DNA of 52,997 nucleotides from a virus (lineage: Duplodnaviria; Heunggongvirae; Uroviricota; Caudoviricetes): positions 1 through 52,997 of the IMG/VR virus record IMGVR_UViG_2585427779_000013. One strand, given 5' to 3'. A model generated the notes under the pieces. The model ran no database searches. It was not told the DNA's origin and saw only the letters and a program-made list of their open reading frames with translations. This document shows positions 2,537-33,155 of the stretch, piece after piece; the stretch's first letter is position 1, and every line of letters starts with the position of its first letter. The position numbers were made by a program, and so were the translations under genes.

Positions 2537-3958
2537 TTAAAAGGATGCGTTATTCTGGTTATTTCGTGGGGAGAATCGGCTTGCTGCCGGACGTTGTTGC
2601 ATTGACTGGATGCAGGCGGACGCCGCGCGAGCCTGGTCGCATGGAATGATGTTGCCGTTATCGTCAAACCGCTGGTAAACAGTCCCCGTTTTCCCGTGAC
2701 GGTTTTTTGAAACAATGATCTCCATGTATTCGCGGGCAACTGATTGTTCGTTGTAGTAGCCGTCGCGGTAGACCATGATGATCCGGTCTGCGTCTTGTTC
2801 AAGATTACCGGAATCACGCAGATCAGAATTGTTCGGGCGCTTGTTCGGTCGTTCTTCAACGCGGCGGGATAATTGCGCCAGCGCCGCCACTGGCACGCGC
2901 AACTCTTTCGCCATCATTTTCAATGACCACGACAATTGCCCTACGGCGAGATCATGACGTTCGGCCTTAGCCAGCTTCATTAACCCGATGTAGTCAATCA
3001 TCACCATTCCAAGATTAGGATGGTCCTGTTTCATCCGTTCGACGGTGGCGCGTATTTCCTCGACCGTTAACTGAGATGCGTCAACAATCCACACATCGAG
3101 ATCGGCAAGGGCACTCATTCCTTGTGCGACGTGCGCCCAACCTTCGTCATCCAGTTTTACCGGATTACGTAGGCAATCCGTTGATAAGTTCCCAGCGCCA
3201 GCGATAGCACGTTCAGTCATCTGATCGAGCGACATCTCAAGCGTGAACAGCAAAACGCCGACCCGCTGACCTTCGCCGCCAGGGTATGGACGTTCAGCCG
3301 CCGCGCGGGCAATTGCCAACGCCAACGCCGATTTACCAGACCCCGGGCGTCCGGCGATAAGCACCAGATCAGTAGCGTTAATGCCGCCTAACATTTCGTC
3401 GAGTGGGTCAATCCCTGTTTTGATGTTGTCAGAGTTCACGCCACACTCCATGCGTTTACTTAGCACTTCCGTGTATTCCTGGACCGCATCGCGCAACAGC
3501 ACCGGGATAATTTGATCTTTTGTTACCTTTAATTTTGAATACCGGGAATCAAAATCTTTCATCGTCTCTTTGACGACTTCAAGCGTCCCTGTTTCCAGTT
3601 TGTAGCGCATATCGTCGATGAGTTCCAACATCTGCCGACGCTGGTGCTCTTCACGTAGTAGCTGTGCGTATCCCTTCAGGTTGGCAGCAGAAGGGCACGA
3701 TCGCGCCGTTTGCATTAGCGGCACAAAGTTTTCATTACCAATCTCATCACCAACCAGTAACGCGTCGATGAGATTTCTGTTTCTGGCTTGCGCACGGATA
3801 ATTTCAAAAGCCCGCTTATATAGCGGAATAGTGAATACTTCAGGATCTAGAGTAGCGAGAACGTCTTGCGCGTTAGGAGTAAGCCCACCTAACAGCAGGC
3901 CACCGATAACCGCAGATTCTCTTTCTTGCCGCAATGAGTTTACTTGTTCGGTTATCAT
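2537..3958 (-). CDS. dnaB: DnaB-family replicative DNA helicase
   Basis: 473 aa; Walker A GRPGSGKSALALAIA, DnaB-like N-terminal domain and RecA-fold C-terminal motifs; GGAGG RBS upstream. Confidence 0.9.
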   Translation of the reverse strand: MITEQVNSLRQERESAVIGGLLLGGLTPNAQDVLATLDPEVFTIPLYKRAFEIIRAQARNRNLIDALLVGDEIGNENFVPLMQTARSCPSAANLKGYAQLLREEHQRRQMLELIDDMRYKLETGTLEVVKETMKDFDSRYSKLKVTKDQIIPVLLRDAVQEYTEVLSKRMECGVNSDNIKTGIDPLDEMLGGINATDLVLIAGRPGSGKSALALAIARAAAERPYPGGEGQRVGVLLFTLEMSLDQMTERAIAGAGNLSTDCLRNPVKLDDEGWAHVAQGMSALADLDVWIVDASQLTVEEIRATVERMKQDHPNLGMVMIDYIGLMKLAKAERHDLAVGQLSWSLKMMAKELRVPVAALAQLSRRVEERPNKRPNNSDLRDSGNLEQDADRIIMVYRDGYYNEQSVAREYMEIIVSKNRHGKTGTVYQRFDDNGNIIPCDQARAASACIQSMQQRPAASRFSPRNNQNNASF

Positions 3959-8546: not shown

Positions 8547-8695
8547 TACAAAATGTAAACATCCGGAGATGACATTATGGTTATTCAGGCGCTTCAATTC
8601 AAACTGGCAGTAGCGGAAATGCTTCACGATGCCGAAATGTGGAGCGCCGCGAATAAAGCCTTATACATAGTGTTAACAGCGAAGGAGGCTAGTTA

Positions 8696-9226
8696 ATGTC
8701 TTATTCAAAACATGGAATGACGCACACAAAACTTTATGAAGTTTTTAAAGGAATGAAAACGAGATGCAGGAAAACCGATAAGAATCCACGAAATAAACAC
8801 TATAAGGATAAGAATATAACTATATGTGATGAATGGTTGAATGATTCATCAAAGTTTATTGAGTGGGCTTTCAATAACGGTTATCAGGAAGGGTTAGAGA
8901 TAGACAGAATTGATAACGACAAAGGTTATTCACCGGATAATTGCCGATGGGTTACACATGCTGAAAACATGCGCAATACATGTAGAACTACGATGTTAAC
9001 AGTGAGCGGGGAAACTAACACAATACATTATTTTTCCGAAAAATACGGTATATGTGAACGCACCATATATACAAGATTACGTCGCGGCTGGAGTCATGAG
9101 GCCGCTGTACTTCTTCCTTTAAGAAAGGGGAAACGATGTGAAGAAAGATTTATACAAAAAATTGTGGCTAATTCAGCAACAATTAAAAGCGCCAAAATCT
9201 CAGCGCAATTCATACGGTGGATATAA
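8696..9226 (+). CDS. HNH homing endonuclease
   Basis: 176 aa; pattern FKGMKTRC...ICDEW...IDRIDNDKGYSPDNCRWVTHAENMRN typical of phage HNH endonucleases; 3' end overlaps erf by 89 nt. Confidence 0.65.
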   Translation: MSYSKHGMTHTKLYEVFKGMKTRCRKTDKNPRNKHYKDKNITICDEWLNDSSKFIEWAFNNGYQEGLEIDRIDNDKGYSPDNCRWVTHAENMRNTCRTTMLTVSGETNTIHYFSEKYGICERTIYTRLRRGWSHEAAVLLPLRKGKRCEERFIQKIVANSATIKSAKISAQFIRWI

Positions 9227-9779
9227 TTACAGATCGGCGGAGGATATTTTAGAGGCTGTTAAGCCTTTATTGGAAGGCATTACGTTAACGCTTAATGATG
9301 AAGTGGTGTTAATTGGTGATCGTTATTACATTAAAGCAACAGCGATATTGAGCGATGGTGAAGATGAAATAACGGCTACTGCTTTCGCCCGCGAGGAAAA
9401 AGAACAAAAAGGCATGTCGTCTGGTCAGTTAACTGGCGCGACTTCTTCTTATGCTCGCAAATATTGTTTAAACGGCTTGTTCTGTATCGACGACGCAAAA
9501 GATCTGGATAGCGACGCTTACGCGAAGCAGACAGGCCAGCAGCCGCGACAACAGAAAAACCCACCAAAACAACAACCGCAGCAGAAGAAAGCGCCGCCAA
9601 ATCCTGATGAAGTATTAGCACGTTTCTGTGATGCAGCAGCGAAAGCGCAGGACGCTAACAAGCTGCGTGAAATATTTGGCAAATGCTGGAAATTACTACC
9701 GGAAGGATCGGAGCATCGAATCAAGGCAAAAGATGTTTATGACATCCGGGTAGCAGAGCTTAACGGGGAGATGGGTTAA
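9138..9779 (+). CDS. erf: Erf-family single-strand annealing recombinase
   Basis: GTG start with GGGG RBS; N-terminal region closely resembles P22 Erf (…YRSAEDILEAVKPLL…IGDRYYIKATA…TGATSSYARKYCLNGLF) by recall. Confidence 0.85.
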   Translation: MKKDLYKKLWLIQQQLKAPKSQRNSYGGYNYRSAEDILEAVKPLLEGITLTLNDEVVLIGDRYYIKATAILSDGEDEITATAFAREEKEQKGMSSGQLTGATSSYARKYCLNGLFCIDDAKDLDSDAYAKQTGQQPRQQKNPPKQQPQQKKAPPNPDEVLARFCDAAAKAQDANKLREIFGKCWKLLPEGSEHRIKAKDVYDIRVAELNGEMG

Positions 9780-24754: not shown

Positions 24755-24986
24755 CAGCGCGTGGACGTGTCGCCGTTTCCGCCAGCCAGCCATAACCGGG
24801 TCAATCCTTCCCGCGAGCGACGGCGGAATAGTCAAAAACACGTAATACCGGATCATCCATCCCATTAACAGGTCAGGCGCTACCTGGGTAGAAGAAAGCG
24901 CCATTCTCCAGTTTTATAAAATTCTAAAAACGGTACTCATGCAGCGCCGTTTTTAGTGTTTTATAGCATTTGCCTATGGTGGAGAT

Positions 24987-25559
24987 ATGTTAACACTAGA
25001 CGAACTAGACAGGATTTTATTCTGTGATGTTGAAAATGGTTTGCTTTACTGGAAATCACGCCCGCGTAGTGACTTTAGCAATGATTTTACTTGCAGGATG
25101 TTTAATTTTAAGGCCGGGAAGATAGCTGGCGGTATTAATGGCGACGGATACGTCGTTATCCATCATAACGGTAAACCTATATTTGCTCATGATGCCGTAT
25201 GGCTTTTTGCTGGTAATGAATTGATAGATGGGCTTGTTATAGATCACATAAACCATATAAGGAGCGATAACAGGCTAAAAAATCTTAGAATGGTTAGTGA
25301 GTTAACTAATTCAAGAAATCAAAAACTTCATAGCAATAACATTACGGGATATAGCGGGGTAAGAAAAACCAAATCAGGAAAATGGTCCGCGCACATACAT
25401 GTAAACGGTAAGGAAAGGCAAATAGGGACATTTTTAACGATTGATGAGGCTGTTAAAGCCAGAAAGAACGCTGAAGCAATTAACGGTTATCATGATAATC
25501 ACGGGCGAGACATCTATGTTGATCTGCCATATATAGACCCGTGGAATAGAATAAATTAA
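24987..25559 (+). CDS. HNH homing endonuclease (HNH plus AP2-like DNA-binding domain)
   Basis: 190 aa; DGLVIDHINHIRSDNRLKNLRMVSELTNSRN and GYSGVRK…W.A motifs; GGTGGAGA RBS. Confidence 0.75.
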   Translation: MLTLDELDRILFCDVENGLLYWKSRPRSDFSNDFTCRMFNFKAGKIAGGINGDGYVVIHHNGKPIFAHDAVWLFAGNELIDGLVIDHINHIRSDNRLKNLRMVSELTNSRNQKLHSNNITGYSGVRKTKSGKWSAHIHVNGKERQIGTFLTIDEAVKARKNAEAINGYHDNHGRDIYVDLPYIDPWNRIN

Positions 25560-25574
25560 TAAAGGAGTCCTGCG

Positions 25575-26117
25575 ATGGCTAAGGGTAAAGGCATTAAGTT
25601 GCCTCAATTCAAAGTCCCGCTCTTTGAGCATACAACAGTATTCTTCTGCCCTACTCGCGATATGTTTTACGAGTTTTGCGAAAAGGCAGGGATCCCAATC
25701 GAACCTGATTTTGAACTGGCAGGAGGTTTAACACTTACTTGCACTGGCGAGAAAGGCGGTAACTTCTACGTGATCGCAGTATTCGATAATGAGCTGGGTA
25801 CGCTGGTACATGAATGCGCTCACACCACATTCCACGTTTTAAGTGATGTAGGCGTCGTAGCGACCACTGATCCAACTCATCCGGCGAACGAGACTTACGC
25901 TTACATGGTAGGCCGCATCTTTGATGCATTTTTCCCTATCCTGGCCGAATCAAACGAAGCACAGGTTGCAGCAATGCAGGCTGCTGAAGTAGTAGAGCAG
26001 GCATTAGAACAGGCAGAACAGCCGAAGAAAGAAGAAAAACCCGCTAAGAAAGGCAAACGTAAGCCGAAATCAAAAGAAGCGTATGTACCGCGCGTAATGA
26101 GCTTTAAACGAGGCTGA
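25575..26117 (+). CDS. hypothetical protein with HExxH motif and Lys-rich tail (180 aa)
   Basis: LVHECAHTTFH motif suggests a zinc-peptidase-like fold; C-terminal KKEEKPAKKGKRKPK. Confidence 0.5.
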   Translation: MAKGKGIKLPQFKVPLFEHTTVFFCPTRDMFYEFCEKAGIPIEPDFELAGGLTLTCTGEKGGNFYVIAVFDNELGTLVHECAHTTFHVLSDVGVVATTDPTHPANETYAYMVGRIFDAFFPILAESNEAQVAAMQAAEVVEQALEQAEQPKKEEKPAKKGKRKPKSKEAYVPRVMSFKRG

Positions 26118-26119
26118 TT

Positions 26120-26209
26120 ATGATTGCGTCAATATTAACGTTTATGGGTGGCGTGGCATTCGGATTCATTATTTGCCTGTTTATGGTGATTATGTCTATG
26201 CGAGGCTGA
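26120..26209 (+). CDS. mini-ORF 1 of tandem hydrophobic peptide array (29 aa)
   Basis: MIASILTFMGGVAFGFIICLFMVIMSMRG; GAGG RBS 7 nt upstream. Confidence 0.4.
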   Translation: MIASILTFMGGVAFGFIICLFMVIMSMRG

Positions 26210-26211
26210 TT

Positions 26212-26307
26212 ATGGACGCTTACATCATCTCCGGATTAATCGGTGTTTCTGTATTTATGGTGGGATTTGTTATTGCCGTGCTGATAACCGTAAAGAGTAA
26301 ATTATGA
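26212..26307 (+). CDS. mini-ORF 2 (31 aa)
   Basis: MDAYIISGLIGVSVFMVGFVIAVLITVKSKL; same GAGGCTGATTATG context as ORF 1. Confidence 0.4.
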   Translation: MDAYIISGLIGVSVFMVGFVIAVLITVKSKL

Positions 26308-26378
26308 ACTCCTACGATTTCATCTGGTTATTGGTGCTCATCGTAGGTATTGGCGTGAACATTTGCAGGCTATGGTGA
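26304..26378 (+). CDS. mini-ORF 3 (24 aa)
   Basis: MNSYDFIWLLVLIVGIGVNICRLW; ATGA overlap with ORF 2. Confidence 0.4.
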   Translation: MNSYDFIWLLVLIVGIGVNICRLW

Positions 26379-26382
26379 AAAT

Positions 26383-26457
26383 ATGATTGACCCGCTAATT
26401 ATCCTTTCTGCCTGCGTCGCTGTATGGCTGGCGATCATGATATTCATTGAAAGCTGA
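26383..26457 (+). CDS. mini-ORF 4 (24 aa)
   Basis: MIDPLIILSACVAVWLAIMIFIES; GGTGA upstream. Confidence 0.35.
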   Translation: MIDPLIILSACVAVWLAIMIFIES

Positions 26458-26468
26458 AGGTATTCACC

Positions 26469-26543
26469 ATGAATATTTACGATCTCATCTGGTGGTCGTT
26501 GGTCGCCGTCATTATCTATTTCTGGTGGAAGAATGTTGTATAG
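26469..26543 (+). CDS. mini-ORF 5 (24 aa)
   Basis: MNIYDLIWWSLVAVIIYFWWKNVV; GAAGG RBS. Confidence 0.4.
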   Translation: MNIYDLIWWSLVAVIIYFWWKNVV

Positions 26544-26551
26544 GTGAAAGC

Positions 26552-26632
26552 ATGAACGCATACGATATGCTATTGCTGGTGGCTGTTATTACAGTCATTG
26601 CCGTTGATGTGTATCGGGAGCTTAAAAAATGA
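26552..26632 (+). CDS. mini-ORF 6 (26 aa)
   Basis: MNAYDMLLLVAVITVIAVDVYRELKK; AGGTGA RBS. Confidence 0.4.
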   Translation: MNAYDMLLLVAVITVIAVDVYRELKK

Positions 26633-26697
26633 AATGGCTTGATTTCTTTTTCCTGATTGTTGCGATTGTTCTTACCATGACAGCACTGACTCAATAG
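26629..26697 (+). CDS. mini-ORF 7 (22 aa)
   Basis: MKWLDFFFLIVAIVLTMTALTQ; ATGA overlap with ORF 6. Confidence 0.35.
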   Translation: MKWLDFFFLIVAIVLTMTALTQ

Positions 26698-26705
26698 GTG
26701 AGCTA

Positions 26706-26780
26706 ATGGATGTTATCGAAGCCGTATTATTCGTATGTATCGCCGCGTTAATTATTGTTGGGGTGATTATCAATGTCTGA
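26706..26780 (+). CDS. mini-ORF 8 (24 aa)
   Basis: MDVIEAVLFVCIAALIIVGVIINV; AGGTGA RBS. Confidence 0.4.
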   Translation: MDVIEAVLFVCIAALIIVGVIINV

Positions 26781-26841
26781 TAGTGATTTCTTAATTATGG
26801 CTATAAGCACGCTGTTGGTTGTTATTGTTTTCTTCTGGTGA
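26773..26841 (+). CDS. mini-ORF 9 (22 aa)
   Basis: MSDSDFLIMAISTLLVVIVFFW; GGGTGA RBS; overlaps ORF 8 end by 8 nt. Confidence 0.3.
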   Translation: MSDSDFLIMAISTLLVVIVFFW

Positions 26842-26849
26842 GAAATATT

Positions 26850-26993
26850 ATGTTTGAATTTATCGATCTACTGATGTTCTTGCTTTGCGCTGGTGTGCTT
26901 ATTATCGCGTTAATGCTATGCGCATACGTGATTGTAATGATTGGCGCGCTCATTTACAGAGAAGCAAAACAGAGATTTAAGGGTAAACAATGA
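26850..26993 (+). CDS. mini-ORF 10 (47 aa)
   Basis: MFEFIDLLMFLLCAGVLIIALMLCAYVIVMIGALIYREAKQRFKGKQ; GGTGAG RBS. Confidence 0.4.
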   Translation: MFEFIDLLMFLLCAGVLIIALMLCAYVIVMIGALIYREAKQRFKGKQ

Positions 26994-27076
26994 AAGAATT
27001 ATTCGACTGGTTGGAAGTATTAACGTACTGCGCGACGATGGTCGTGTGTTTGTATATTCTGTGTAAATTATATTGA
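26990..27076 (+). CDS. mini-ORF 11 (28 aa)
   Basis: MKELFDWLEVLTYCATMVVCLYILCKLY; ATGA overlap with ORF 10; ends 12 nt before terS start. Confidence 0.35.
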   Translation: MKELFDWLEVLTYCATMVVCLYILCKLY

Positions 27077-27087
27077 GAGGTGACATT

Positions 27088-27573
27088 ATGGCCCGCACGA
27101 AAAAGGCAAAGGCTGAAGACAAAAAGCCAGCAGCCAAAAAGACGGGCCGTCCGCATGGCTATTCAGAAGAAAAGGCATTGGAGATCTGCGAGCTTGTGTC
27201 GGACGGCGAAAGCATTAACAAAATTTCGAAGATGCCTGGTATGCCTGCACGTTCAACAATCCTTAAGTGGTTCCGTGATGTGCCGGAATTTTCGGACATG
27301 TACATACGCGCGAAGGAGATCGGCTTTGAGGTGTTAGCTGATGAAATCATCGATCTCGCTGATGCGCCAGAGAACATCAAAAAGGAAGAGTTAAACAGAC
27401 ACCATTTGATGATTGAAACGCGCAAATGGCTATTAGCAAAACTGCAACCGCGTAAATACGGTGAACGCGTCACGCAGGAAATCGTAGGCAACAAGGAAGA
27501 AGCGCCCGTCCAGGTTGAAGTCACGAAAGAAGAGATCGCCCGCATCGTCCAGGAAGTAGAAGACGAGGTGTGA
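27088..27573 (+). CDS. terminase small subunit
   Basis: 161 aa starting MARTKKAK; basic N-terminus and HTH-like region; directly precedes large terminase with 4-nt overlap. Confidence 0.7.
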   Translation: MARTKKAKAEDKKPAAKKTGRPHGYSEEKALEICELVSDGESINKISKMPGMPARSTILKWFRDVPEFSDMYIRAKEIGFEVLADEIIDLADAPENIKKEELNRHHLMIETRKWLLAKLQPRKYGERVTQEIVGNKEEAPVQVEVTKEEIARIVQEVEDEV

Positions 27574-29054
27574 TTATGTTGTCCATCAAAGAAAGGGTTA
27601 TTCAGTCAAAATGTGAAAACGATGGCCTGTTCTTCAACCGTTATTTCTACAAGCAAGCAAACGGAACGAAGATGTTAATCTCAGGCCATCACATAGCCAT
27701 ACGTGATGCTCTACAACGCGTTATTAATGGTGAGATTACCCGGCTCATCATTAACATTCCCCCAGGGTACGGTAAAACCATGATTGCGACCATTAACATG
27801 ATGGCCCGCTCCCTCGCAATAAATCCCCGCACACGCTTCCTTCACGTTTCATACTCCGACAACCTGGCATTACTTAATTCCTCGACAGTCAGAAGCATGG
27901 TTTGTTCGCAGGAATACCAAAAGCTATGGCCCATGAAGATCCGCAACGATGCCAACAGTAAATCGATGTGGTGGACGGAACAGGGCGGCGGGATATATGC
28001 CGCATCGTCACACGGTCAGATTACGGGTTTTCGTGCTGGTTACATGGAGCCAGGTTTTAACGGCGCGATGATTATCGACGACCCATTAAAGCCCGCTGAC
28101 GCTTACTCTGATGTGATGCGGGATAAGGTAAAGAACAACTACAACGATACGCTTGCTTCACGTCTGGCAGTGCAAACAACGCCTGTTATCGTCATTATGC
28201 AGCGTATCCACTACGATGATTTGTCCGGCTACCTGTTACGCGGTGGCAGTGGTGAGAAGTGGTATCACCTTAACCTGCCAGTGAAGATCGACAATAGCAT
28301 CGACTATTGGGATCTGTACCCGGAAAACGAATTCGCTATTCCTATTGCTCATAACCTGCCGGACGGCTGGCTATGGCCTAAAAAGCACAATGACAGCCAT
28401 GAAGCCGGACTGAAAGCGCACCGTAGGTCATTCGAGGCACAGTACATGCAGCGCCCGCGTAAATTCGACGAGGAAGGCGCGTTATGGACTGAAGCCATGA
28501 TAACCGCCGCGCACCGGATGCAGATAACGCAGGACAAGATCCGCACGGTGATAGCCATCGACCCGGCGACAACATCATCTGATGAGTCAGACGAAACAGG
28601 GATTGTAGCCTGTTCAGCCTATGGTGGCGGCAAGTACGCACAGTATTCTGTAGACGGTGACTACTCAGGCCGCATGTCTCCTAACGATTGGGCGCAAGCA
28701 TCAATTAACGCTTACAACATCCATGAAGCTGACGCGATAGTTATCGAAACCAACCAGGGCGGGGAAATGGCAGAGGCCACGCTACGTAACGCCGGATTCA
28801 AAGGCCGCATTGTTAAGGTGCACGCAAGCAAGGGTAAATTCGCCCGCGCCGAGCCAATATCGGCACTGTATGCACAAGGAAGGGTGGCCCACACAGGCAG
28901 CCTGTACACGCTGGAAAATCAAATGATGGAATACGTGCCAGCTACCGCTAAAAAATCCCCGGACCGCCTCGACGCAATGGTGTGGGGTATCACTGAATTA
29001 AGCCAACCACAGGCTATGGGCCTCATGTTACCGAAGCGCCTGCGCGGATTTTAA
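27570..29054 (+). CDS. terminase large subunit (ATPase/nuclease)
   Basis: 494 aa; Walker A PPGYGKT, Walker B MIIDDP, C-terminal nuclease-like acidic motifs. Confidence 0.85.
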   Translation: MIMLSIKERVIQSKCENDGLFFNRYFYKQANGTKMLISGHHIAIRDALQRVINGEITRLIINIPPGYGKTMIATINMMARSLAINPRTRFLHVSYSDNLALLNSSTVRSMVCSQEYQKLWPMKIRNDANSKSMWWTEQGGGIYAASSHGQITGFRAGYMEPGFNGAMIIDDPLKPADAYSDVMRDKVKNNYNDTLASRLAVQTTPVIVIMQRIHYDDLSGYLLRGGSGEKWYHLNLPVKIDNSIDYWDLYPENEFAIPIAHNLPDGWLWPKKHNDSHEAGLKAHRRSFEAQYMQRPRKFDEEGALWTEAMITAAHRMQITQDKIRTVIAIDPATTSSDESDETGIVACSAYGGGKYAQYSVDGDYSGRMSPNDWAQASINAYNIHEADAIVIETNQGGEMAEATLRNAGFKGRIVKVHASKGKFARAEPISALYAQGRVAHTGSLYTLENQMMEYVPATAKKSPDRLDAMVWGITELSQPQAMGLMLPKRLRGF

Positions 29055-29132
29055 AAACCATCCCACAATCCCCCACAAGTTTTTCTATTTTTCGCGTAGC
29101 AACGCGTAAACATGTATTCAGGAGTAAACATT

Positions 29133-30506
29133 ATGCCATCCAATTTAGAATTGGCGGTTAATGCTGCCTTGTCACAACGCCAGGCGGCCTTTGCCCGCTA
29201 TGCAGCCGCTAACCCATTCACTATGGGGATCGATGCTAAACGTAACGCCGCGTGGAGTGAATACGGATTCAAAGAAGAGCTTACCTATACTGATCTATAT
29301 AAGCTGTATCGTCGCGGTGGTATTGCTCACGGGGCCATTGAAAAAATTATCACCACATGCTGGCGCGATAGCCCGGTGCTGATAGAAGGCACTGAAGACG
29401 AGAAAGCGGAAACGGAAACACCCTGGGAAAGAGAAATAAAGAAACAATTCGATAACCGATTCTGGCGTGTTATTGCTGAATGCGATCGCCGTCGCCTGGT
29501 TGGTCGTTATGCCGGACTATTGATTCACGTCAAAGATAACCAGCCGTGGGATCGTCCAGTAACAAAAGGGGTAGGCATCGCTAAATTCACTCCTGTATGG
29601 GCTGGCGCACTAACACCAAAGGACTTCGATGAAAACCCGGATAGCGATAACTACGGTCTGCCGACATGGTGGGAATACAAAGAACGCATCAACAGCAAGA
29701 CCATCGCAAGGAAAATACATCCAGACCGGATATTTATCTTTGGTGACTATTCTGATGATGCTATCGCTTTCCTTGAGCCATCCTATAACGCTTTCGTTTC
29801 GCTGGAGAAAGTGGAAGGTGGTAGCGGTGAGTCATTCCTGAAGAACGCCGCACGCCAGCTTGCTATCTCATTCGACAAAGAAATTGACTTCCGCTCACTG
29901 GCTGCAACGTATGACTGCGACGTCACAGAGTTACGCGAAAAATTCAATGAAGCCGCAGCGGAAATGAATAAAGGTAATGATGTGATGATGGCGTTACAGG
30001 GCGCAACAGTAAGCCCGCTGGTAACTGCCGTATCTGACCCGTCCGCAACCTATGATGTAAACCTGCAAACCGCCGCCGCTGGTATCGACATTCCAACGCG
30101 TATCCTAGTTGGGAATCAACAGGGTGAACGAGCATCAACTGAAGATCTCCGCTATTTCAATAACCGATGCATGACCCGCCGCCAGGAAATCGGAGGCGAG
30201 CTTGAAGAACTATTCCGCAAACTGGCAGATCTACGCCTTACCAGTGAGCCACGCGACATATCAGTGCTATGGGATGACCTTAACGCTATGACCAAAGCCG
30301 AACTACTGGAAGCGGCACACAAGATGGCGCAAATCAATCAGGCATGTCTTGCTACTGGTGAGCAGGTATTCAGCGGTGATGAGATCCGCGAAGCTGCCGG
30401 ATATGAAGGGCCAACGCAGGAAGTAGAAGTGGAAGACGAGGAAAACGATGATGAAGGTGAAGAAAATAATCAGGCGAATACCTCCAGCCGCGATAATGCC
30501 ATCTAA
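29133..30506 (+). CDS. putative portal protein
   Basis: 457 aa following terL, acidic C-terminus; AGGAG RBS before ATG 29133; assignment by size and gene order. Confidence 0.6.
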   Translation: MPSNLELAVNAALSQRQAAFARYAAANPFTMGIDAKRNAAWSEYGFKEELTYTDLYKLYRRGGIAHGAIEKIITTCWRDSPVLIEGTEDEKAETETPWEREIKKQFDNRFWRVIAECDRRRLVGRYAGLLIHVKDNQPWDRPVTKGVGIAKFTPVWAGALTPKDFDENPDSDNYGLPTWWEYKERINSKTIARKIHPDRIFIFGDYSDDAIAFLEPSYNAFVSLEKVEGGSGESFLKNAARQLAISFDKEIDFRSLAATYDCDVTELREKFNEAAAEMNKGNDVMMALQGATVSPLVTAVSDPSATYDVNLQTAAAGIDIPTRILVGNQQGERASTEDLRYFNNRCMTRRQEIGGELEELFRKLADLRLTSEPRDISVLWDDLNAMTKAELLEAAHKMAQINQACLATGEQVFSGDEIREAAGYEGPTQEVEVEDEENDDEGEENNQANTSSRDNAI

Positions 30507-31392
30507 CACCGAAGACCCGACCATGACAGGTAAGTTGCGGTCGGGCGCTATTAAGCGTTTTAAGTCCTGCCTGAAGAAAATAGCCGATCCATATATCGCC
30601 ATACTGGACAGAATACAATATAGCCTGGCTGTTAATAAGAAATACACCTTCCAGATTTACATGGATGAATTGCACGACATGCTGGAGGACGCCAGCAACA
30701 TGATTGATGAGATATTCGAACTAACCGACCCGGAAAGTTTTTGGTTCTGGCAGGAATACGTGAAGGTGGCCTATCAGCGCGGCACGGCACAGGAATACGC
30801 CAACATCGCTAACCAGTCTGTCACGTACTCAAGCGCATACCCTGATGTATCTGCCGTGTTATCAAGCACAACTTACCGCACCCGCCTTGCCCTGGTGCGT
30901 ACCCGTGTATTTGAGGAAATGCGCGGGCTGACCGCACAGATCAAAAAGGATATGGCCCGGCGATTAACTGAAGGCATGGCCCGTGGTTTAAATCCACTGG
31001 AAATAGCGCGCACATTGAATCAGGAAACGCAATTGCCACTGTACAGGTGCAAACGTATTGCCCGAACTGAAATATGCACAGCGTTACGCACAGCACGTAT
31101 GGATGAGGCCGAAGCGGCGACAGAAGAATTTAATCTGCGCACTATGCAAATGCACATTTCGGCATTATCACCGACTACCAGGCTATCGCACGCGCAGCGG
31201 CACGGGAAAACATACACCATAGATGAGCAGCGCGAATGGTGGAGCAGATCCCCAAATTCTATTAACTGCAAATGTAGCACGATTACCGTATTAGTTGACG
31301 AAGACGGTAATATATTAAACGAAAGAATATTAGATCGGGCGCAAGAAAACTATAAGGTTGCGCACGCTAAATATGGCGAAGATTGGGAGTAA
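30448..31392 (+). CDS. head morphogenesis protein (Mu F / SPP1 gp7-like minor head protein)
   Basis: 314 aa; position after portal and overall resemblance to Mu F-like family by recall; start uncertain because it overlaps the portal gene end. Confidence 0.6.
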   Translation: MMKVKKIIRRIPPAAIMPSNTEDPTMTGKLRSGAIKRFKSCLKKIADPYIAILDRIQYSLAVNKKYTFQIYMDELHDMLEDASNMIDEIFELTDPESFWFWQEYVKVAYQRGTAQEYANIANQSVTYSSAYPDVSAVLSSTTYRTRLALVRTRVFEEMRGLTAQIKKDMARRLTEGMARGLNPLEIARTLNQETQLPLYRCKRIARTEICTALRTARMDEAEAATEEFNLRTMQMHISALSPTTRLSHAQRHGKTYTIDEQREWWSRSPNSINCKCSTITVLVDEDGNILNERILDRAQENYKVAHAKYGEDWE

Positions 31393-31405
31393 AACCGTGA
31401 GTAAA

Positions 31406-31888
31406 ATGATTAACTGGCATGATTATTTCACGTATGAATCAGGTCATATTTATTGGAAAATATCACCAACTAACGGCGTACATATTGGCGATCATGCAGG
31501 CAATGACAGCGGGTTAGGATATTTGCGTGTCCGTGTCAACTATAGGTTATATCTTGTTAGTAGAATCATATGGGAAATGCACAACGGACCGATACCTGAA
31601 GGTTACGAGATAGATCATATTGACCATAACACGCTAAATAACGATATAACGAATCTAAGGATGGTAAGTCATTACGAAAATACACTAAATGCGCCAATGA
31701 GAAAAGATAATAAAAGCGGTTACATCGGTGTTATTTGGCATAAGGCGTCACGTAAATGGATGGCGTATGTACAAGTGAATAAGAAGCGCAAACATTTAGG
31801 TTTATTTGACAGCATAGATGAGGCTGTAGCCGCACGCCGACAAGCTGAAAAAGAGAACAATTATCATCCAAATCACTGGAGTGTTTAA
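31406..31888 (+). CDS. HNH homing endonuclease (paralog of 24987-25559)
   Basis: EIDHIDHNTLNNDITNLRMVSHYENT and GYIGV…W.A motifs align with the other HNH gene; track ORF begins at TTG 31358, start set to ATG 31406. Confidence 0.7.
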   Translation: MINWHDYFTYESGHIYWKISPTNGVHIGDHAGNDSGLGYLRVRVNYRLYLVSRIIWEMHNGPIPEGYEIDHIDHNTLNNDITNLRMVSHYENTLNAPMRKDNKSGYIGVIWHKASRKWMAYVQVNKKRKHLGLFDSIDEAVAARRQAEKENNYHPNHWSV

Positions 31889-31889
31889 G

Positions 31890-33155
31890 ATGTCAGATTT
31901 AATTCAAGTAAACGCAAAAATTTCATGTAATAAAATACGCAGGGAGATATACAACGGTAGGGAACACATCGTAGTCCCTTCGTATACACTCCCTTTCGGT
32001 ATCGTTATGAATCGTGAATATTACCCGGAAGCTGAAATTATCGCTAATTACCAGTCACTGGAGGGTACACTTGCCCCGCTGGGCCATCCTACCGTTGACG
32101 GTAAATTTGTTTCCGCATTTAGCCCGGAAGGATTAAACACGGGTTTTTGTGGAGCGTGGAACAGAAACGTTGAATTACGCGGCAATCGTGTTTATGTGGA
32201 AAAGTGGGTGGATATTGAAACAGCCAGCCACTCAGAACAAGGCCGGGAATTGTTGAGCAGGCTGGAAGCACTGGAGAAAGGAGAAAGCAAGGATCCCATC
32301 TGGTCGTCCGTCGCTGTATATCGTCAACGTATGCCAGCTACTGAAGAGATGAAAGCCCAGGGCGCTGACAGCGTTGTTAAAATTATGTCGATCGACCATG
32401 ACGCTATTTTACTGCATGAGCCGCCAGCCGCCTCACCTGAACAGGGTGTAGGGTTGATGGTTAATACTGACCAGGCGAAACCGTTAATGGCGGTGGCAAT
32501 GAAAGAAAACAGCTACCGCACGCTTGAGAAACAATTAACCGACGCGGCGCGGGAATTATTCCCTGATGCCGATTATGTGTACGTGGTGGACTTCACTGAT
32601 AAAGAGGTGACGATCGCCACTAATACTGAAAGTGCTCAAGTTTGCGCATATGAAAAACAGGCTGATAAAATTATTCTCAATAATGGCGAGCTTGCAACCA
32701 ACGAGGAAAGTAAATCCTGGTTTGCTCAGTTCGCTGAACACCTTTCTAATCTTTTCTCCCTGAATGAAAAAATTAAGGCCAATAAATCGGAGGACGATCC
32801 CATGCCTTTGACCAAAGAAGAACGCGCCGAACTGGTAAAAGAAATTAACGAAGGCTTAGCCGCCAATATCGCTAATGCAGTAGCAGAGGCATTAAAACCA
32901 GTACAGGCAAGCGTGGAAGAATTACAGACCAACCAGAAAGCAATTAAAGAAGAAATTGCAGCAAATGCAAATAAAGAAGTAGCAGAAAAACGCGCCGCAG
33001 TAGCAAAAGTACACGGCGAAATTGTTGCTAACGCATTAAATGGTGAAGCGTTAGAAGCAATGTTTAAATCCCTGGGTAAAGCAGCGCCGATGGCAACCAA
33101 CGCAGCAAGCGAAGGTAAAAAAGGCGAAGTACCAGACTTTAACACTTATTTCTAA
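31890..33155 (+). CDS. putative scaffolding protein / prohead-assembly protein
   Basis: 421 aa; Ala/Glu/Lys-rich coiled-coil C-terminal half; GGAG RBS; lies between head morphogenesis and capsid genes. Confidence 0.55.
   Translation: MSDLIQVNAKISCNKIRREIYNGREHIVVPSYTLPFGIVMNREYYPEAEIIANYQSLEGTLAPLGHPTVDGKFVSAFSPEGLNTGFCGAWNRNVELRGNRVYVEKWVDIETASHSEQGRELLSRLEALEKGESKDPIWSSVAVYRQRMPATEEMKAQGADSVVKIMSIDHDAILLHEPPAASPEQGVGLMVNTDQAKPLMAVAMKENSYRTLEKQLTDAARELFPDADYVYVVDFTDKEVTIATNTESAQVCAYEKQADKIILNNGELATNEESKSWFAQFAEHLSNLFSLNEKIKANKSEDDPMPLTKEERAELVKEINEGLAANIANAVAEALKPVQASVEELQTNQKAIKEEIAANANKEVAEKRAAVAKVHGEIVANALNGEALEAMFKSLGKAAPMATNAASEGKKGEVPDFNTYF

Follow-up and report, generated by a model that had tools for sequence, protein, structure and literature searches.

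Do the HNH genes found along the genome of a temperate coliphage serve the phage, for instance in DNA packaging, or do they mainly serve their own spread? This question is raised by the IMG/VR virus record IMGVR_UViG_2585427779_000013, whose whole stretch of 52,997 bp (the window) belongs to a temperate coliphage of the mEp021 group, also called mEpimmI, which comprises Nus-dependent non-lambdoid phages (PMC11893012). The window carries three such genes, named here HNH-0, HNH-1 and HNH-2. A preliminary description made from the sequence alone took them for free-standing homing endonuclease genes, called HNH-1 and HNH-2 paralogs flanking the packaging and head module, and considered HNH-1, located between the lysis cassette and terminase, as a possible factor of cos cleavage. 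Comparison with relatives leads to the reading that all three are probably free-standing homing endonuclease genes, i.e., selfish cassettes that entered the prophage independently. This reading is carried by the domain identity of the proteins, the precision and the rarity of the insertions, the recent lateral transfer of one cassette, a recoded tract linked with the second, and a decayed copy of the third. The three open reading frames (ORFs) are intact, lie on the plus strand at the positions given in the preliminary description, and have matches among hidden Markov models (HMMs) and in PHROG:

8696 to 9226, plus strand: HNH-0 ORF (176 aa), HNH-like, of the 'IDRIDN' subfamily, with a C-terminal helix-turn-helix-like region (phrog_3377, E=1.7e-48)
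24987 to 25559, plus strand: HNH-1 ORF (190 aa), with I-HmuI-like N-terminal and HNH(HNN) domains, an AP2 domain and a clade-specific C-terminal tail, …NHGRDxYxDxPYIDPWxRI (HNH_3, phrog_99, 1U3E)
31397 or 31406 to 31888, plus strand: HNH-2 ORF, with I-HmuI-like N-terminal and HNH(HNN) domains and an AP2 domain (HNH_3, E=3e-20; phrog_99)

The identity of HNH-1 and HNH-2 relates first to the nuclease domain. HNH-1 matches Pfam HNH_3 with 39.7 bits (cut-off 24.8, E=3.8e-10) and phrog_99, 'HNH endonuclease', with E=5.9e-56, and HNH-2 reaches 72 bits against the same Pfam cut-off and E=1.6e-62 in phrog_99; such E-values are far beyond chance. Within a family alignment of 50 sequences including HNH-1, the residues D73, H74, N86 and N98 (HNH-2 numbering) are invariant, and this D-H…N…N pattern aligns with the motif of the intron endonuclease I-HmuI. 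Compared with I-HmuI (PDB 1U3E), HNH-1 alone gives E=0.0019, and the profile of the HNH-1/HNH-2 family gives E=8.8e-11 over residues 1–109. A single-sequence search of the PDB with HNH-2 returned a chance match only, and a profile search was needed. The AlphaFold2 model of HNH-2 has a mean confidence (pLDDT) of 91.1, and its top Foldseek match in the PDB is 1u3e_M, again I-HmuI (probability 1.00, E=3.4e-3), followed by AP2 domains. The template modelling (TM) score of about 0.4 to I-HmuI is lowered by the domain orientation, and the identity in the Foldseek alignment is 19%.

The second part of both proteins resembles an AP2 domain. The Pfam AP2 scores of HNH-1 and HNH-2 are weak (18.7 and 22.4 bits, under the cut-off of 33.3); a precomputed PF00847 match is present on several of their homologs, and the family profile matches the plant AP2 domains of Arabidopsis WRI1 (4.4e-8) and TEM1 (5.2e-5), as well as a Plasmodium AP2 domain (0.039). 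In the HNH-2 model, strands at residues 112–115, 120–127 and 130–137 are followed by a helix at 140–153, and this part superimposes on AtERF1 (1GCC) with a root-mean-square deviation of 1.3 Å over 50 columns, with 7ET4 and 7WQ5 matching as well. The preliminary description had noted HNH and 'GY…W' motifs common to both proteins, and the latter indeed corresponds to the YRG element of the AP2 domain. Judged by profiles and by the model, HNH-1 and HNH-2 belong to the widespread phage 'HNN-AP2' class, in which the C-terminal AP2 domain would supply the sequence recognition.

The free-standing nature of the genes follows from their surroundings, since neither a group I intron nor any other RNA family was detected around them; scans for tRNAs, Rfam families, promoters and terminators gave nothing bearing on the cassettes. 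Relatives of HNH-1 and HNH-2 occur in about 2,900–3,400 phage records searched by tblastn, including Rtp, often in multiple copies per genome, and a tblastn search of the window with the three proteins revealed no additional HNH gene. No NCBIfam match was obtained for the HNH proteins, and PADLOC assigned them only generic 'homing endonuclease' models, on which ground their membership in a defence system was rejected.

HNH-1 and HNH-2 are 36% identical over 162 aa (E=2e-28), and the term paralogs is adequate at the level of the family. As a statement of duplication it does not stand: HNH-2 is 51% identical to a protein of phage JulesPiccard, and HNH-1 is 48% identical to a Yersinia prophage protein. 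Each is thus nearer to HNH proteins from elsewhere than to the other, which suggests independent acquisition, and an origin by duplication within the genome was rejected on the same figures.

The mobility of the genes was approached by comparing their sites between relatives. The window has 87–93% nucleotide identity to the phages mEp515, mEp010, MagusPhagus and mEp021 and to related prophages, and it matches a contig of the E. coli draft assembly GCA_000713675.1 at 100% identity. Related prophages are present in 35 of 5,426 complete E. coli genomes. The comparison sets include these 35 genomes, 7 isolated phages of the group and IMG/VR contigs (20 for the HNH-1 site, 41 for the HNH-2 site and 13 for the HNH-0 site). 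Such relatives lacking the insertions, proposed earlier as the material for comparison, provided empty alleles that defined three insertion junctions, and each fixed site is polymorphic for presence and absence among close relatives. Recent movement is seen for HNH-1:

24968 to 25573, plus strand: HNH-1 cassette, 606 bp (BLAST breakpoints 24967 / 25574 against mEp021, mEp515, MagusPhagus, GF66.2, FAH and PAR)
24942 to 25612, plus strand: tract recently transferred with HNH-1, near-identical in the diverged backgrounds L015–L018
25575 to 26117, plus strand: gp49-like gene (homolog of mEp021 gp49, 180 aa), 3′ of HNH-1 (phrog_1365, E=6.4e-31; in all relatives)

The HNH-1 cassette replaces about 65 bp of intergenic DNA of the empty allele, including the native ribosome-binding site (RBS) of the gp49-like gene. 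It brings its own site, GGTGGAG, together with a new one, AAGGAG, for the gp49-like gene, and its GC content is 38.4%, compared with 46% for the window. None of the 35 E. coli prophages and none of the 20 IMG/VR contigs with the same terminase genes has the cassette at this site. An ortholog of at least 60% identity is missing from every record of the phage collection, which covers the seven isolated phages of the group, all of them plaque-forming. The exact protein is present on seven contigs, and in a phage of more distant relationship the HNH-1 site is taken by an ortholog of 79% identity. In the four diverged backgrounds L015–L018, the tract 24942–25612 differs by 1–5 mismatches per 671 bp, against a divergence of 10.5–12% in the flanks (binomial P about 1e-30), and the identity of the cassette across such backgrounds is about 99.8%. 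The HNH-1 cassette has therefore been transferred laterally in recent time, independently of its flanks. Compared with the empty alleles, no diverged flanking tract was seen around HNH-1, and the signal consists of identical cassettes in diverged backgrounds.

A different kind of trace accompanies HNH-2, which was described earlier as being inserted like a mobile homing endonuclease. This description holds, as the site is empty in most relatives, and it extends to HNH-1 and HNH-0. The features concerned are the following:

31406 to 31894, plus strand: HNH-2 insertion, 489 bp, missing in empty alleles (BLAST breakpoints 31405 / 31895 against MagusPhagus, mEp021, GF66.2, FAH and PAR; junction alignments)
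31890 to 32000, plus strand: HNH-2-linked recoded 5′ tract of the scaffold-like gene, its first 111 nt (identity to empty versus occupied alleles)
31890 to 33155, plus strand: scaffold-like head-assembly gene (421 aa; putative scaffold; phrog_760, function unknown, E=3.8e-134)

The insertion lies directly 3′ of GTGAGTAAA, which in empty alleles forms the first three codons of the scaffold-like gene, and HNH-2 therefore uses the RBS and the start codon of that gene. In exchange, the 3′ end of the cassette provides the scaffold-like gene with a new RBS (TGGAGTG) and a new ATG. HNH-2 itself can start at GTG 31397 (163 aa) or at ATG 31406 (160 aa), and gene callers are split between the two on identical contigs. 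The GTG is the likelier start because it stands 7 nt after the Shine-Dalgarno sequence GGGAG, with the ATG being possible. The insert has a GC content of 38.9%, again compared with 46% for the window. The site is occupied in 1/35 E. coli prophages (strain E21845/O/A, 93.5% nucleotide identity), 1/7 isolated phages (mEp515, 75% amino-acid identity) and 1/41 IMG/VR contigs.

Directly downstream, the tract 31890–32000 has 61–68% identity to all 36 empty alleles and 86–93% to the 3 other occupied ones, while the 200 nt that follow are about 92% identical in both groups alike. The association of this tract with HNH-2 occupancy is complete (36 empty and 4 occupied alleles). In our own count on the alignment, about 19 of the codon changes over 40 codons are synonymous and 8 are non-synonymous, with one codon indel in addition, as expected of a stretch imported with HNH-2 from a distant donor. 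Judging from this pattern, the tract is likely a co-converted segment or a target-site variant which would make the carrier immune to its own nuclease.

The third gene, HNH-0, differs in its family and in the state of its copies:

8688 to 9137, plus strand: HNH-0 cassette, a 450-bp insertion relative to empty alleles (BLAST breakpoints against mEp010, 8687 / 9138; junction alignment)
9138 to 9779, plus strand: erf (ssDNA-annealing recombinase), the next gene 3′ of HNH-0 (phrog_155, E=4.1e-47; annotated as ERF family protein in relatives)

Its assignment in the preliminary description to a different subfamily, upstream of and overlapping erf, agrees with the match to phrog_3377 and with an overlap in which the final 89 nt of HNH-0 run into erf (start GTG 9138) in another frame. 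The cassette begins right after the native erf RBS (GAAGGAG), ends at the erf GTG, and supplies with its 3′ end a new RBS for erf. The GC content of the ORF (8696–9226) is 36.5%, against 46% for the whole window. Among the E. coli prophages a match was found at the site in 4/35, of which only strain GF66.2 has an intact copy. The copy in STEC308 is a pseudogene, frameshifted, split over two frames and unannotated in its record, and the copies in STEC306 and STEC307 have the same match statistics as that of STEC308. All 7 isolated phages and all 13 IMG/VR contigs are empty at this position. In the prophage of E21845, another HNH gene, with 50% identity to HNH-2, sits at this site upstream of erf. 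The HNH-0 copies of the window and STEC308 have in common a short variant stretch where erf begins, an observation on two lineages only. At this flank erf is mosaic overall (64–84% identity), too much so for co-conversion to be read cleanly. In the same E21845/O/A prophage (L007, 2287–2835), which also carries the HNH-2 ortholog, erf and ssb are separated by about 550 bp without annotation; the window lacks this segment, which may be a further insertion.

Against Pfam HNH_3, HNH-0 scores only 17.7 bits, under the cut-off of 24.8. Its family keeps both Asn residues of the motif, which reads IDRIDN, while Arg71, invariant in an alignment of 42 family sequences, aligns with the catalytic His of the DH motif of I-HmuI. 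The family has 2691 database matches at E<=1e-8, annotated as 'HNH endonuclease'. HNH-0 can be called HNH-like by homology, and canonical HNH catalysis is only putative. Conserved Cys residues and an N-terminal Y..YG.RGI..C.EW motif also characterize this family, and none of its listed members has a precomputed Pfam domain.

The replacement of the catalytic His gives some ground for a view that the HNH genes are inactive relics or DNA-binding regulators without nuclease activity, comparable to AP2/CapR domains originating from homing endonucleases. Silencing of transcription is a known role of AP2 domains with such an origin (bioRxiv 10.64898/2026.02.23.707548). This explanation is nevertheless highly improbable for the set of genes. 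HNH-1 and HNH-2 keep all invariant catalytic residues in intact, full-length ORFs, and the recent spread of the HNH-1 cassette into several backgrounds calls for an active mobility function. Even in HNH-0 the Arg is invariant throughout a family of 2691 matches, and it is therefore a family trait and not decay.

Taken across the sites, all three cassettes sit exactly at gene boundaries, each with a replacement RBS for the downstream gene, and in the case of HNH-2 also with a start codon, so that the host operon keeps working. Relatives have other HNH genes at nearby boundaries. In mEp013 one follows the gp49-like gene, in the loci L067 and L091 one precedes Rz, and mEp515 has four HNH-like matches. 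Conservation of the genes at identical positions in all relatives, named earlier as the observation that would argue against mobility, is not what is seen, as each site is mostly empty.

The position of HNH-1 brings up the question of packaging. The region starts with holin, lysozyme and Rz (to 24754), followed by HNH-1, the gp49-like gene, tiny ORFs (about 950 bp), and the small and the large terminase genes. It continues with the portal gene, the gene for a Mu F-like protein, HNH-2, the gene for the 421-aa scaffold-like protein and more head genes, and the scaffold-like gene sits between the Mu F-like gene and a DUF6260 capsid gene. The packaging and head genes referred to are:

27088 to 27573, plus strand: small terminase subunit, Sf6 gp1-like (Pfam Sf6_terminase, E=4.3e-36; PDB 3HEF, E=1.3e-28)
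27570 to 29054, plus strand: large terminase subunit (Pfam Terminase_6C, E=1.9e-13)
29112 to 30506, plus strand: portal protein (Pfam Phage_portal_3, E=6.1e-20)
30448 to 31392, plus strand: head morphogenesis (Mu F-like) protein, immediately 5′ of HNH-2 (Pfam Phage_Mu_F, E=7.6e-15)

HNH-1 could accordingly be seen as a packaging accessory of the HK97 gp74 type, placed before the terminase genes in order to stimulate the cutting of concatemers by terminase. Its location between the lysis cassette and the terminase genes agrees with this, members of a sister clade of 46–48% identity are likewise encoded shortly before small terminase genes in prophages of Yersinia and Xenorhabdus, and the conserved C-terminal tail of the HNH-1 clade could be a protein-interaction motif. 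The domain type, however, does not fit. According to PMC3592412, the terminase-associated HNH class combines His-Asn-His with a [CxxC]2 zinc site and is located next to cos and the terminase genes. No CxxC motif is present in HNH-0, HNH-1 or HNH-2, and HNH-1 has no PF01844 match at E<=0.01. HNH-1 thus shares with the HK97 gp74 type only the His-Me finger superfamily and a position upstream of terminase genes, and it lacks each of the tested features of that type. Phage Sf6 is a headful packager, and the Sf6 gp1-like small terminase of the window (3HEF, E=1.3e-28) points to headful rather than cos packaging; a search of the PDB with the large terminase gave no match. The end of HNH-1 is about 1.5 kb away from the small terminase gene, with the 543-bp gp49-like gene and about 950 bp of tiny ORFs in between.

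The distribution of HNH-1 and its clade argues in the same direction. Of the 35 other E. coli prophages none carries the gene, and neither do the 7 plaque-forming phages that share the packaging genes or any of the 20 IMG/VR contigs. A terminase-specific partner would be expected to vary with the terminase type, and the HNH-1 clade, which precedes four unrelated terminase types, does not. In Xenorhabdus sp. TCT-1 (L099), a clade member of 47% identity even coexists with a genuine packaging-type HNH gene, the order being Bro-N, the HNH-1-clade member, a 116-aa ORF, a PF01844 HNH (116 aa, E=8.8e-16), Terminase_4, an HK97-type large terminase and the portal. Since the PF01844 HNH lies directly upstream of the HK97-type terminase and both genes occur together, the clade is distinct from the packaging HNH. 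Based on domain type, terminase type, distance and conservation, the packaging or cos-cleavage role proposed for HNH-1 in the preliminary description is largely refuted and must be regarded as most unlikely. A packaging role is also not needed to explain the mobility data. Just upstream of the Bro-N and HNH-1-clade genes, at 3680–4609 of L099, a protein with a KwaB-like (Kiwa defence) domain is encoded.

The recurrent position of the clade deserves a separate consideration. An identical sister-clade protein is found on an 857-bp cassette, 98.5% identical, in two prophages with unrelated flanks and different packaging modules. The position fits the published placement of homing endonuclease genes at recombination or module boundaries next to essential genes (PMC10448857). 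It is conceivable, though rather unlikely, that the HNH-1 clade (190–193 aa, with the …NHGRDxYLDxPYIDPWxR tail) is a homing lineage specialised for the junction at which the lysis/accessory region meets the packaging module in temperate enterobacterial phages, where it could drive the exchange of packaging and head modules; alternatively, the tail might dock onto a packaging or recombination protein. If so, cutting at this junction would contribute to mosaicism of the lambdoid type. The scan of genome contigs with the HNH-1 clade yielded only 8 loci, too few to measure the association with small terminases. A prophage of Pseudocitrobacter vendiensis (L100, 6010–6489) has an HNH-AP2 gene 48% identical to HNH-1, without the C-terminal tail of the clade; it lies directly upstream of a portal gene 57% identical to that of the window, i.e., at another occupied boundary of the head module.

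The cassettes could also be retained for a benefit to the phage. In such a scenario the nucleases are kept mainly as weapons against relatives, through interference competition or marker exclusion, by cutting the genomes of sister phages that co-infect or already reside in the cell, and homing is a by-product. The likely targets lie in or beside the scaffold-like gene, erf and the packaging module, all of them probably necessary or useful to the phage, and a cut would therefore be costly to a rival; an intron homing endonuclease mediates competition of this kind in another phage, as PMC11620839 reports. All mobility evidence is compatible with this explanation, and sequence cannot separate a benefit of the phage from pure selfishness. 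The occupancy of about 2–3% for HNH-2 and <1% for HNH-1, together with the decayed copy of HNH-0, nevertheless fits cycles of gain and loss better than a sustained advantage, which makes the explanation an unlikely one.

Under the preferred reading of the genes as selfish homing cassettes, the process would begin when a carrier and an empty phage meet in one cell, by co-infection or by infection of a lysogen. The HNH enzyme would then attack the empty allele at the insertion point or close to it, by a nick or a cut. As I-HmuI itself acts by nicking DNA, HNH-1 and HNH-2 may likewise introduce nicks instead of double-strand cuts. Recombinational repair, with the carrier genome as template, would transfer the cassette and a short piece of adjoining sequence to the broken genome, possibly with the help of the phage's own Erf/SSB recombination genes. 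The carrier of HNH-1 would be protected by the removal of the target together with the 65 bp replaced, and that of HNH-2 by the recoded flank at the start of the scaffold-like gene; for HNH-0, the first few erf codons could play this role.

Several points weigh against this reading or limit its reach. Cleavage, target sites and biased inheritance for the three HNH proteins, as well as the repair pathway, are what we infer from the comparisons. Prophage databases are redundant, and the occupancy counts are not independent samples. For the recoded tract by HNH-2, ordinary mosaic recombination with an end point that coincides with the cassette could be the source. In HNH-0 and its whole subfamily, the nuclease chemistry is made uncertain by the Arg that replaces the catalytic His, and the conserved tail of the HNH-1 clade with its recurrent site upstream of packaging modules could reflect an additional function.

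Known systems offer close parallels. I-HmuI of Bacillus phage SPO1 is the best structural and sequence relative, and the HNH-1/HNH-2 family can be aligned with its N-terminal β-sheet and its D-H…N…N His-Me finger. It is, however, encoded in a group I intron and ends in helical or helix-turn-helix modules, whereas HNH-1 and HNH-2 are free-standing and end in AP2. The same architecture as in HNH-1 and HNH-2 is present in the HNN-AP2 endonucleases of the Xanthomonas phages Xp10/OP1/Xop411, of T1, Rtp and T5, in the HNH-AP2 class of Magnani et al. 2004 and in ICP1 IPA-HNH. Common to them is the HNN motif with DNR / NLR / EN boxes, followed by AP2 (PMC2248197, PMC10448857). This class has been described as free-standing, multi-copy, and gained and lost in phages (PMC2248197), and the genes studied here behave alike, with several copies per genome, variable presence in close relatives and decayed copies. 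Most described carriers are lytic phages, in contrast to the temperate mEpimmI prophages. For the Xanthomonas phages, conserved flanks were not found and a sequence-independent spread was proposed (PMC2248197), whereas the sites here are fixed and the flanks informative. MobE, SegB, SegG and other T4 genes, known from intronless homing (PMC2790892, PMC2330249 and PMC2988022), resemble the present cases in the gene placed between host genes, co-conversion, immunity by target differences and the inferred cleavage of the allele lacking the gene. Seg proteins are of the GIY-YIG type and Mob-like ICP1 HNH genes have zinc-finger domains (PMC10448857), neither of them with AP2. The activity of the T4 enzymes has been demonstrated, whereas that of HNH-0, HNH-1 and HNH-2 is predicted from homology.

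The genes surrounding the cassettes provide further observations. The gp49-like gene (25575–26117, phrog_1365) encodes a HECAH motif of the HExxH type, without any Pfam or PADLOC match, and this motif suggests a small metallopeptidase-like protein. Between this gene and the small terminase (26118–27072), a tandem array of about 11 tiny ORFs (22–50 aa) is located, each consisting of one hydrophobic, transmembrane-like helix, e.g., MIASILTFMGGVAFGFIICLFMVIMSMRG. The array differs between relatives and looks internally paralogous, because the overlapping segments 26382–26699 and 26551–26669 match one region of mEp515 in two registers. Its first unit (26107–26215) has 93–95% identity over about 100 bp to rV5-like lytic myophages (Vequintavirus), with the rV5 counterpart located between ORF137 and ORF138, and also matches several 'Campylobacter phage' records that are apparently of the same coliphage type. 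Such a short segment common to a temperate siphophage group and lytic myophages is unexpected. The portal (29112–30506) is named 'anti-CBASS protein Acb1 family protein' by RefSeq (PGAP) in most related prophages; given its Phage_portal_3 match and its portal position, this label is probably an annotation artefact.

The kind of element described here has long been known. Its presence and turnover in the mEpimmI group appear to be unreported in the descriptive paper of the group, which makes no mention of HNH or homing (PMC11893012). The practical value of the finding concerns the annotation and the evolution of mEp021-group phages, and the current understanding of homing endonucleases is unchanged. 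For annotation, an HNH gene next to terminase should not automatically be taken for a packaging factor; the two types can be separated by the domain type (HNH_3 with AP2 versus PF01844 with CxxC), the terminase type and the conservation among relatives. For evolution, it means that short cassettes are exchanged, each at a constant gene boundary, within the mEpimmI group, which is reported to be common in the human gut. Candidate target sites are the junctions that precede erf, the gp49-like gene and the scaffold-like gene in empty alleles, and the natural pairs of occupied and empty alleles among phages plaquing on E. coli K-12 make HNH-AP2 homing directly testable in a temperate coliphage.

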